Shown: one piece after another, positions 54,001 to 64,000 of the stretch
Position numbering within the stretch: the first letter of the stretch is position 1
Layout of the letters: each line of letters begins with the position of its first letter
Source of the DNA: Enterobacteria phage VT2phi_272
Direction: 5' to 3' (one strand)
Sequence record: NC_028656.1
Length of the DNA: 64,000 bases
Made by a program: the position numbers

Positions 54001-57000
54001 GAATGCGAACCAGAGTGACCAGGTAACCGGGCAGATTGACACAACCACACGGGGGCAGGTATCGCAGGCAGATAAGTATGTTGCCGGGCTACAGGATGTT
54101 GCTGCTCTCGGTTCTGGTCAGAAGGCGGATGCGTTACAGAGTTTTAACTCTCTGGCAGACAGCAGTCTGGCAAAAGCTAAATCGGATGCACAGGCGGCGT
54201 TTACGAAACAGCAGGGGCGAGCCTCTCTTGTTGGCGCTGGTCTGGGTGCGGCAGGTGCATATGCGATGCATAAGGCTGGCGGTAGCGGAGGAAGTGGCGG
54301 TGCTAAAACACCTGGCACCGGCGCTAATGCCATTCAGCATCAGGCTCAGAACTGGAGACTGTAATTATGGAGTATGGCAAATACGAAACTCTCGCAAGGG
54401 CTGGTTATTCAGGAGCAGACCGCCCACAGGGTGACTGGCAGACGTCAGCAGCGCTGACACGCCAACAATACGACGACTGGCGAACCAGATATTTGCCCCG
54501 CGTGGCAAGGCTGGCTGACCTTGGGGAGAACAACAGTCTGATGAATGCACAGCTTGCACGGGTGGGAGGCCTTGCCACTTCCAGTCTCCGTACAGCGCAG
54601 ATGGCGCAGGATAACCAGATGGCGAGATACGGGGTAAACCGCCCGGATAATCCCGACAGTAATACGCTGGGGTTACGTAATGCCCTGGCAATTGCTGGCG
54701 CGAAAAATGGTATCCGTGAAGCCGAACAGGATCGCCAGATGAATATTCTGACGGGGGCTTCTGCACCGGCAAGACAGAAACTGAGTGTTGGCGGCCAACT
54801 GGTGGCAGCGTAAGGGGGCAATATGGGATACGGTTTACTGGATATTGCAAATCAGTCGCGGCGTGAGGCATTACAGGGAATAAGTGACGCAGACAGACGA
54901 CGTGAAGAAATTGAGGCTGCGAACAAACAGATGGCGGCGCAACAGAAAGCGCAGAACAAGCAGAATATCGGTACGGGCATTGGTACGGGGGCGGCTATTG
55001 GCGCATCCGTTGGTGGTCCTGTTGGTGCTGTTGCTGGAGCAGTAATTGGCGGCATTGCTGGTTCTTTGTTTTAAGGAGTGGTGAATGAGCGGATTTGCAC
55101 AGGGGTTACTTGCCGGATTCAGCACCGTTGACCAGGCAATGACCCGTCGTAAGGAGCTTGGTCTGCGTGAAGCACAGCTTGCCCGGCAACAGAAAAATAA
55201 CGAGCGCGATTTTGAGTTTGCGCAGTCTCAGTTTGAACATAATAAAAACGTTGATCAGCGGAACTTTGATTACAGAGCCAAAGTTGACGACCGTAATTAT
55301 GCACTGAAGGAGAGGGAGTTTAACGCTAACCAGAATTACCGGAATGCGTCACTGGGTATGGAGCAGCAGCGACTCCAGTTGCAGAAATACAACCAGCGAC
55401 GGCTTGAGTATAACGATATGATTGCCCATAGCCAGCCACTAATGGAAGCGCTTGGAAAAGCAATTGAGGCTGGCGATCAGGAGGCTGCAACGCGTCTGTT
55501 CGGGCAGCTGCCAAAGGGACATCCATTAATTCTTATGTCAAACGAAGGCTATGCAGCGAAAGCGGGTCAGGCCGTGATCAACCTGCAAAAAATCTTTGGT
55601 GATAAGCCGGACATGGCGATCGATTCGCTGAATACCCCGGAAAATCTCGATGTGCTTTCCGGCGTGTTTGCCCCGGAACTACAACAGCGTATTGGCATGC
55701 CTGATTCAACCGGGGACAAAACGATAAAAGAGGCCAGGATTGGCAGTATCGTACCAGCGCAGCAGGAAGGGTACGTACTTATTGGCCTTGATCTCACATA
55801 CAGCGATGGCTCCACCGCGCATAAACCTGTAACAGAATACGGCAGTGCGCACCCTGATGATCAAACCGTGCTGGCGATACCCGTTGATAAGGCTATCGCT
55901 CAGGTCAGGGATCGCAGCAAATTTGCAGAGATATCGAAAAATTATGGTTATTTTATGCCGAAGCAGCAGGGACTTTCTCTGAAAGAGCTTCAGAAGGGGG
56001 CCAGCAACGTAGCGGCGGACGCGATCAAGAATGGCGGTAATGCTCAGGCTGCGGTGGATGAATATTATGCTGCGACTGGTTCACAACCGCATCAACAGAA
56101 AATTCAGCAACAAAAACTTCAGCAACAGGTTATCAACTGGGCGGGAGATGATCCTGATAAGCTGTCATTTGCCAGAAATGTAGCGGCCCGTCAGCCTGAA
56201 ATGCTGGAACCTCAGAATCAGAAATTGCTGGAGAACGGGTATGCGAATTTTCTCCGTATTCAAAAGGCCAGGGGGGAACAGGCCAGAGATGAAAGTGCTT
56301 CATCTGCATCTCAGTTTATCCGTGGACTGAAACAGAATTACGCCCAGTAATTCACGATATTCCATTAATACCATTTCCTGATGCCCGGCCATTGTGCCGG
56401 GTTTTTTTATGGAGTCTGTATGGCCTATTCAGAGGAACAGCGTCCTGAGGCGCAACTCGGTAACCAGAATCGTAACAGCCTGAACATTCAGCAACCCGGC
56501 GAAACTGACAGCTATGAAGCATTTTTCTCTGATCCGAATCGCTGGAAGGATAACAGTACGTCGTTCAGCCTGGGCGATGTATTGCCAACAATGGGTAAAG
56601 GTTTCGCCCAGTCCGTCCGGGGAACAGGGGAAATGGCCCGTGGACTCGGTGATGCGATGATTCAGAGCCCGGTAAAAACAGGGGCGCGTATTTTAAATGA
56701 GTTCAGCCGTATGGGGCTGCCGGGTGTCGCAACTGTGCAGGATATTTTTGCCGGTGGCAGCAGGGGGGCTGATGAGGTCATCGATACCCTGCCTGATGGC
56801 AAAAACGCGGTTACTGATACTGTCGGTAAAGGTCTGAAGGCAACCGGTAAGGCTGTCAGTGATGGTGCCAAAGCCACTGATGAATGGCTGACCGGTAAGA
56901 TGTCGCCGGGTGCAGTTCGTGCGCTGAATACGCCGATGACCGAAGGCTATAATGATTCTGCGGTCTGGGTGGCGAAGGGTGTAAACCTGATTGGTGCGCT

Positions 57001-63000: not shown

Positions 63001-64000
63001 TCCGCGCCTGATGCGTGCGATGAAGAATATGGGACCGGAAACCAGCAATGCCTTTGTTCGTACGCTGGGGAAAGTTAACCGCTTCCTGGCAACGGTGAAC
63101 ACGTCGTATAACCCGGAATTCCTGGTCAGTAACTTCATCCGTGACGTGCAGACGGCGGTGATGAACCTGAAGGCGGAGCAGGGAAGGAGCGACGGTAAAC
63201 TGAAAGGGCTGGATAACTTATCCGCCCTGGCTGTGGTGAAAGACAGCCGTTCTGCCATGTCAGCCGTATACGCCAGTCTGCGTGGTAAAACCCTCACGGG
63301 AAAAGGTGCACAGTGGCAGAAGGTGTGGAAAGAGTTTGTTGAGGACGGAGGTAAAACCGGCTGGTTTAACATGGGTGACCTTGAAGGCCAGCAGAAGGAA
63401 ATGGATCGCCTTGTATCGCTGGCGAAGGGAGGATGGAAAGGCCAGAGTATCGGTGCATGGAATTCGTTCCTTAACCTTGTCGAGGATGCCAACGGGGCGG
63501 TTGAAAACGCTCTGCGTCTTTCTGCCTATAAACACGCCCGTGATGCCGGTTTGTCACGCCAGCAGGCGGCGTCTCTTGCCAAAAACATGACGGTGAACTT
63601 TAACCGTCGTGGTGAGCAGGGAGCGCTGATGAACTCGCTGTACATGTTCGCCAACGCCAGCATTCAGGGGACCGCAAACCTGGTGAGAACGCTCGGACAT
63701 CTTAATGGCGACGGGCCGTTACTGGAGCGCCTTCGCTGGAAGAATCTCAATGTACCGCAGAAAATCGCGCTTGCAGCTGTGGGAGCGGGTTATCTGCTTG
63801 GCTCGCTTAACCGCAGTGTTGCGGGGGAGGATGATGACGGGGTTAACTGGTATGACAAGGTGCCGTCTCATGTGAAAGAGCGTAACCTCGTCATTATGAA
63901 ATCGGTGTTCGGGGGCAAGGCCGGAGAGTACTGGAGTATTCCTCTGCCTTACGGGTACAACGTTTTCTTCCTGCTTGGTCACACAGCCGAAGGGGGGGCA

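Follow-up and report, generated by a model that had tools for sequence, protein, structure and literature searches.

A giant, modular and probably ejected polyvalent protein of short-tailed Shiga-toxin phages

Introduction

What does a short-tailed Shiga-toxin phage do with a single late protein of 2,793 amino acids (aa)? The question is raised by Enterobacteria phage VT2phi_272, of which a stretch of 64,000 nucleotides (nt; record NC_028656.1), hereafter the window, was analyzed. From position 56420 to the very end of the window, the plus strand holds one uninterrupted reading frame. A first-pass annotation of this DNA had noticed the frame, located two zincin-like HExxH motifs in it, suggested a polyvalent protein thought to be ejected into the host, and called its domain content largely uncharacterized. 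Here we argue that the product is likely to be a giant polyvalent internal virion protein of short-tailed Shiga-toxin phages (Sepvirinae), modular in its build and serving as an ejected carrier of effectors. All features described below lie on the plus strand, and nucleotide positions are those of the window unless another record is named.

Neither the gene nor its family nor its proposed role is novel; all three have been published. Polyvalent proteins were defined, together with LPD, metallopeptidase (MPTase) and PBECR domains, by Iyer et al. (2017; PMC5512222). The CLCA_X zincins, borne by phages and plasmids, were defined by Lenart et al. (2013; PMC3650047); most members of this family are encoded by such elements, often inside proteins longer than 1,000 aa. 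The gene itself has published genetics and proteomics, so that the description as largely uncharacterized does not hold. This evidence concerns orthologs that are at least about 96-99% identical to the giant protein. In Sp5, deletion of the counterpart ORF80 (ECs1242; 2,793 aa) placed it among the nine late genes that are essential (Mondal et al., 2016; PMC5155283). In phi24B, the counterpart gp47 (2,811 aa) is abundant in purified virions and is missing from every cryo-electron microscopy map (bioRxiv 10.64898/2026.04.10.717836).

Results and Discussion

Translation from the ATG at 56420 yields 2,527 stop-free codons, open at the window end. The frame is missing from the mechanical list of open reading frames (ORFs) because it runs off the window, and both the translation and the ORF listing bear out the first-pass annotation in adding it. 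The continuation past position 64000 was looked up in Escherichia phage PA2 (Oslovirus, Sepvirinae), which supplies 266 further codons and a stop (PA2 62622-63422); the window (56420..64000) contains codons 1-2527 of 2,793. Since the last 266 codons are outside the window, the full-length PA2 protein was used where residues beyond it were needed. The PA2 copy (8,382 nt, 2,793 aa; YP_009180966, gp48), labeled in RefSeq only as "LPD5 domain-containing protein," has a single mismatch over the 7,581 nt of frame. This sole difference, at window position 63996, is G for T in PA2 and gives Gly for Val at aa 2526; it lies 5 bases from the window end, within a G run. Inspection for a stop or frameshift inside 56420-64000 found the frame intact in PA2, 933W and a pair of diverged E. 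coli prophages.

Nucleotide identity is 99.6% to 933W and VT2-Sakai (Sp5), and many Stx2a phages are equally close. On the sequence evidence, the giant frame is the same gene as Sp5 ORF80 (ECs1242), 933W L0134 and phi24B gp47. These three and PA2 gp48 share the attR-proximal position and the Pfam domains, and nothing of substance differs among them. In PA2, the gene is the last before attR, with 122 nt between the gene end and the attR feature (PA2 63545-63569). It closes the late block of the Sepvirinae prophage downstream of the tail-fiber genes, and the PA2 annotation confirms its location after the tail-fiber genes and lom/bor-type morons. Matches to the gene come from 184 phage records and, among 5,426 complete E. 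coli genomes, from 427 (about 8%); query coverage reaches at least 80% in every phage record and in 423 of the genomes. Up to five places per complete genome carry it. The E. coli protein-database entries for this gene are mostly marked "partial" and come from contigs of 1-5 kb. Evidently the gene is a frequent breakpoint in draft assemblies of Shiga toxin-producing E. coli, and the breakpoints probably come from several near-identical prophage copies per genome.

The assignment to the polyvalent proteins follows from the domain content. Four Pfam families score over their cut-offs: LPD5 at aa 1051-1200 (153 bits), LPD1 at aa 1361-1440 (84 bits), MuF_C at aa 1750-1839 (64-69 bits) and LPD38 at aa 2476-2681 (165.7 bits). 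The protein thus combines several unrelated effector and LPD domains in one giant chain with a late-gene location, as in the definition of Iyer et al. (2017); the finding of phi24B gp47 in virions agrees with the earlier suggestion of a polyvalent, ejected protein. The proteins described by Iyer et al., among them the N4 virion RNA polymerase gp50 and P1 DdrB/DarB, are likewise giant, virion-associated products of late genes that join an MPTase to unrelated enzymatic or LPD domains. In contrast to other polyvalent proteins, the giant protein lacks RNA polymerase, methylase, helicase, ART and ParB modules and carries LPD5 and PBECR as its cargo. In PHROGs, it corresponds to phrog_616 (unknown function), with partial matches to further giant-protein families, including a weak and short one to DarB-like proteins at aa 2351-2437. 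When the full protein was compared by phmmer with all sequences in the PDB, the best E-value was 0.8, for a chance methyltransferase match, and PADLOC found no defense system matching the giant protein.

To describe the modules across the family, segments were scored against 148 diverged giant homologs, which are representatives of 50%-identity clusters with a median length of 2,908 aa. Zincin domain 1 was matched in 147 of them, the region ahead of LPD5 (aa 901-1050) in 140, and the LPD5 core (aa 1051-1180) in 83. Zincin-like domain 2 was matched in 59 representatives by phmmer and in 110 by jackhmmer. The counts for the other segments are 20 for MuF_C, 24-29 for the C-terminal module, 14 for the N-terminal module and four for aa 441-900. 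LPD5, zincin 1 (CLCA_X/LPD1) and zincin 2 form a widely conserved cassette. Within it the two zincins are a conserved pair: where both occur, in 58 representatives, zincin 2 comes after zincin 1, separated from it by a median of 18 residues.

Zincin domain 1, of the CLCA_X type, spans aa 1181-1445 (59960..60754), as delimited by Pfam and NCBIfam matches, conservation and an AlphaFold2 (AF2) model. Its motif HEWFH (aa 1284-1288; 60269..60283) and the second motif HEIIH (61070-61084) lie exactly where they had been reported. Given the 37 His and 202 Glu residues of the protein, about 0.035 HExxH motifs are expected by chance and two are observed; this, with their conservation across diverged homologs, rules out a chance origin. 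The domain aligns with the NCBIfam CLCA_X model (NF041907) from end to end (model positions 3-245 of 250, E = 9e-44). Its score of 149.8 bits is under the subfamily cut-off of 260, and it is therefore a domain-level relative, not a member of the stand-alone CLCA_X subfamily of about 250 aa. It shares with the CLCA_X/CLCA_N zincins (Lenart et al., 2013) the Asp after HExxH, with the spacing HExxHxxD vs. HExxHxxxD in the published consensus.

Conservation among 86 homologs reaches at least 90% for the HEWFH motif and for each of the residues H1263, E1265, H1284, E1285, W1286, H1288, D1291, E1375, A1378, R1379 and E1382. The AF2 model of aa 1181-1680 (mean predicted local distance difference test score, pLDDT, of 80) has a helix and three strands, then the HExxH helix and, further on, the Glu helix, and zincin 1 shows fold similarity to solved zincins. 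Counted from aa 1181, the strands are 69-72, 82-85 and 90-93, and H104, E105 and H108 sit on helix 102-118. E1375 and E1382, both within EMAARAFERY, lie on model helix 193-211, and Asp1291 is an alternative candidate ligand. The metallopeptidase-like context claimed for the first motif is thus sustained: downstream of it, the domain offers two conserved Glu residues as candidates for the third ligand. The second core strand (predicted at aa 1262-1265) bears His1263, and HEWFH is followed at a distance of three residues by Asp1291. This pattern matches the signature that Iyer et al. (2017; PMC5512222) give for a widespread clade of phage-type MPTases, in which a His ends strand 2 and an Asp occupies position +3 from the motif. 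Because the Glu helix falls within Pfam LPD1, LPD1 is the C-terminal half of zincin 1; on the modeled structure, it is part of this domain and not a separate one. The fold of zincin 1 is demonstrated, and its metallopeptidase activity is putative.

Zincin-like domain 2, at aa 1470-1680 (60827..61459), belongs to no Pfam family and is delimited by predicted topology and conservation. Its motif, HEIIHH (aa 1551-1556, 61070..61087; HEIIH being aa 1551-1555), can be read both as HExxH and as HExxxH. In an alignment of 120 sequences drawn from 110 diverged representatives, with a median identity of 21% to the query, E1552, the second His and E1607 are 100% conserved, H1551 97.5% and A1610 91%. The motif is HExxxH only in 89 of these homologs, HExxH only in 22 and both in six. 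A hand-picked alignment of 25 sequences has the identical four invariant columns. The second motif, too, therefore has a conserved HExx(x)H...E context, with a downstream third-ligand candidate, Glu1607, that is invariant in all 120 sequences. The AF2 topology consists of a helix, three strands, the HEIIHH helix and further helices, one of which bears Glu1607.

An hhalign comparison placed domain 2 in register with domain 1 over the strands and the motif with weak scores (P 0.004, probability 8.7%), which we take as support and not as proof. The domain 2 profile against PDB sequences retrieved calmodulin-like noise and non-significant reprolysins only, and a Pfam scan of 25 diverged domain-2 sequences found no family. 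The domain agrees with the HExxxH MPTases named by Iyer et al. (2017; PMC5512222), so that both the HExxxH variant of zincin 2 and the His/Asp signature of zincin 1 have been described among polyvalent MPTases. Domain 2 is probably gluzincin-like as judged from the model, and its metal-site signature is secure.

Substituted, inactive sites are documented in zincin families (Lenart et al., 2013; PMC3650047), and by analogy the two HExxH motifs could be relics, the domains being catalytically dead scaffolds of a purely structural protein. The conservation pattern makes this highly improbable. Every candidate ligand and the catalytic Glu are retained, and they are invariant or nearly so at a median identity of 21%, which points to selection on the metal site itself.

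The MuF_C/PBECR domain follows at aa 1750-1839 (61667..61936; PF18819), its score standing well over the cut-off of 27.6 bits. MuF_C was defined as a phage BECR-fold (PBECR) RNase-like domain, the active forms of which have a His in helix 1 and a Ser or Thr in strand 4 (Iyer et al., 2017; PMC5512222). Among 22 homologous MuF_C domains, H1752 is present in 20, and S1816 in 18, with Thr in two more. Since both residues are conserved, the active PBECR configuration appears to be retained: judging from the aligned residues, the MuF_C domain of the giant protein keeps the His/Ser catalytic pair and is a putative RNase. The MuF_C part of the second AF2 model is poor (pLDDT below 50), and for this reason we make no structural claim for the domain; the position of the two residues on the fold is presumptive.

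This assignment bears on the phi24B preprint (10.64898/2026.04.10.717836), which lists LPD5, LPD1, LPD38 and a "MuF-C metallopeptidase domain" for gp47, and proposes that it is packed in the capsid for ejection and that its peptidase digests peptidoglycan. The domain listed there as a metallopeptidase is, by its sequence signature, RNase-like, and the HExxH domains precede it, at aa 1181-1680. The place to expect the peptidase activity that the preprint invokes is accordingly aa 1181-1680, with E1285 and E1552, and not MuF-C. The metallopeptidase domains might nevertheless degrade the cell wall and open the peptidoglycan for an ejection conduit, as the preprint proposes. Wall digestion does occur in this class of proteins, as related giants sometimes have a lytic transglycosylase domain (LT_GEWL) ahead of the same C-terminal module, and Pfam scans reveal no other recognizable wall hydrolase in the giant protein: lysozyme, transglycosylase, amidase and M23/M15 domains were all absent from scans of the whole protein and of eight segments with E-values up to 5. 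Direct digestion of peptidoglycan by the metallopeptidase domains is unlikely, and the probability we give to wall degradation as their role is small.

The C-terminal helical module, delimited by LPD38, conservation and a structural model, spans aa 1886-2793, of which the window contains the part up to aa 2527 (62075..64000). LPD38 (PF18857) itself starts at aa 2476 (nt 63845), so that only its aa 2476-2524 are within the window; in 24 of 25 representatives it occupies the very end of the protein. The module is kept as a unit, with 33-59% identity across at least 90% of its length, and in other proteins the Pfam domains ahead of it are methyltransferases, ART-PolyVal, InPase and LPD3. As the last 266 aa are outside the window, a 97%-identical E. 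coli fragment was modeled; the AF2 model (predicted TM-score 0.71, pLDDT mostly 80-95) is largely helical with small sheets. Foldseek aligned it, across about 1,000 columns and with TM-scores of 0.5-0.8, to the C-terminal parts of giant phage proteins with LT_GEWL, RelA/SpoT, ART-PolyVal or methylase annotations. From this combination of a constant end and varying partners, we infer that the module is a packaging and delivery chassis to which exchangeable cargo is attached. A stand-alone copy of 981 aa was seen in an Amphritea sp. contig (JBALVQ010000053), in an integrase locus with no recognizable structural genes. As proof of the autonomy of the module this copy is uninformative, because the locus is probably a prophage remnant.

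The giant protein has a proposed role in common with the structurally known ejection proteins of other short-tailed phages, namely T7 gp14/gp15/gp16, P22 gp7/gp20/gp16 and the proteins of the N4-like phage DEV. In this role it would be stored in the head, invisible or disordered in icosahedral maps, would be needed for infectivity and would have to go through a narrow tail channel.

Several observations weigh against an ejected effector carrier. The C-terminal module has no resemblance to any solved ejection protein among those tested (T7, P22, N4-like), and hence its role as a conduit or chassis is put forward conditionally. No classical transmembrane helix is predicted in the protein, no 19-aa window having a Kyte-Doolittle mean above 1.5. 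Ejection, proteolysis, Zn binding and RNase activity are all putative for the giant protein. Finally, the Sp5 phenotype was read by its authors as a defect in tail assembly: they called ORF80 a tail-formation gene because the deletion mutant made normal-looking, DNA-filled heads to which an anti-tail-fiber antibody did not bind (Mondal et al., 2016; PMC5155283). Loss of tail fibers is not obviously expected from a pure cargo or ejection protein. The phenotype suggests that the protein also stabilizes the portal-tail junction, or that heads without it lose their tails.

Taken at face value, this phenotype would make the protein primarily a tail-assembly factor or a tail component, possibly an energy-using one, without which filled heads carry neither tail nor fibers. 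The position of the gene is in accord with such a role, as it ends the tail/late block right after ORF79 (window 55085-56350), which is itself essential for tail formation in Sp5 (PMC5155283). The structural data point the other way: gp47 left no density in the high-resolution structures of the phi24B tail and portal, despite its abundance in the particles (10.64898/2026.04.10.717836). Loss of an internal core protein could also weaken tail attachment indirectly, and the domains are those found in polyvalent proteins that carry effectors. As for the use of energy, Mondal et al. noted a match of ORF80 to COG1483, an AAA+ ATPase family (PMC5155283). There is no Walker A motif ([AG]xxxxGK[ST]) in the 2,793 aa and no ATPase family was found in Pfam, NCBIfam or PADLOC, so that the AAA+ suggestion is unsupported. 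We therefore consider a primary role in tail assembly unlikely, if somewhat less so than wall degradation, and retain the ejected effector carrier as the probable function.

Such a carrier would be stored in the head and, after release of the needle, threaded out via the portal and the tail channel. The C-terminal module, perhaps together with the N-terminal one, would be the constant part responsible for entry into the head and exit at infection; these terminal modules may have a part in packaging and exit, and perhaps in insertion into the membrane. The chain, free of Cys and rich in linkers, would leave in an unfolded state, before or along with the DNA. The zincin pair might then cut the polyprotein itself, or else host envelope or defense proteins, and cleavage would free LPD5 and the RNase-like cargo for action in the newly infected cell.

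The absence of Cys is a property of the whole protein. No Cys occurs in its 2,793 aa, as against about 34 expected from the 21 other window genes or about 30 expected from the position-specific base composition of the gene, and 116 of the 148 giant homologs are likewise Cys-free. Cys is also absent from the products of the neighboring gene (55085-56350) and of three further late ORFs in the window, one of them the tail-fiber gene. A more specific and rather doubtful idea is that the zincin pair, with its gap of about 15-50 residues, is a self-processing unit that would convert the ejected 300-kDa chain into a membrane chassis and free effectors (LPD5 and the PBECR RNase), and that the lack of Cys is an adaptation to unfolded passage via the tail channel and the oxidizing periplasm.

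The N-terminal module (aa 1-440; 56420..57739) has no Pfam family and occupies the N-terminus in all 14 representatives that carry it. A word-seeded search of 5.8 billion proteins with the N-terminal 450 aa retrieved relatives from E. coli and Salmonella prophages only, all of them without annotation. The module ends with a perfect glycine zipper of five glycines, G409-x3-G413-x3-G417-x3-G421-x3-G425 (GAAFGAAMGAPFGAVAG; 57644..57694). Gly-zipper Pfam matches in this region are weak (E 0.03-0.08), and the segment at aa 409-425 is, by its residue pattern, a candidate for membrane insertion. A shorter glycine zipper, GNVVGGVLGAFSPVG (aa 2538-2552), is found within LPD38 just past the window end.

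The low-complexity stretch at aa 441-900 (57740..59119) matches no family. Polar and charged residues, Pro and Gly make up 64-76% of each 50-aa block; the wording "Ala/Gln-rich" of the first-pass annotation undersells this content. The extended LPD5 region (aa 901-1180; 59120..59959) starts with a conserved DFGE-x-GGA-K. Within E. coli, the giant gene is mosaic, and every variant retains both HExxH motifs and zero Cys. In E. coli 2011C_3361, the LPD5 block (59120-59959) is 62.6% identical, compared with 86-91% for its neighbors (aa 441-900 and zincin 1) and 86-99.5% for the other blocks. The comparison suggests that recombination between prophages exchanged this single module.

At the start of the gene, a Shine-Dalgarno sequence GGAG (56411-56414) is separated by a 5-nt spacer from ATG 56420 (56411..56422), the start annotated for PA2 in RefSeq. 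An alternative in-frame ATG at 56381, 39 nt upstream, is the annotated start in 933W, and for this reason the 933W protein is listed with 2,806 aa vs. 2,793 aa in PA2 and Sp5; the length annotated for phi24B gp47 is 2,811 aa. A terminator-like hairpin, GCCCGGC-loop-GCCGGGT followed by a run of seven T (56383..56408), sits between the upstream gene (end 56350) and the giant gene, and occupies most of the 39-nt extension that follows ATG 56381. A terminator scan of 55000-57000 found one site, no more than shuffled sequences predict, and the hairpin is a lead only. The upstream gene (55085-56350; 421 aa; 933W L0133, Sp5 ORF79) belongs to phrog_601 (unknown function), is without a family annotation and may act jointly with the giant protein.

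Conclusion

In summary, the present analysis adds to the published work correct positions for the peptidase sites, a new assignment of MuF-C, the inclusion of LPD1 in a zincin domain, a second HExx(x)H domain that is without Pfam annotation, the reusable and chassis-like C-terminal module, which resembles no solved structure, and the family-wide lack of Cys. Should the idea of a self-processing zincin pair hold, the module ending in LPD38 would be a widespread, single-chain alternative of new structure to the ejectosomes that T7 and P22 build from three proteins. Shiga-toxin genes are spread among E. coli by short-tailed Stx phages; this essential giant gene is present in about 8% of the complete genomes of the species, and its product is the leading candidate for the crossing of the envelope after BamA binding.

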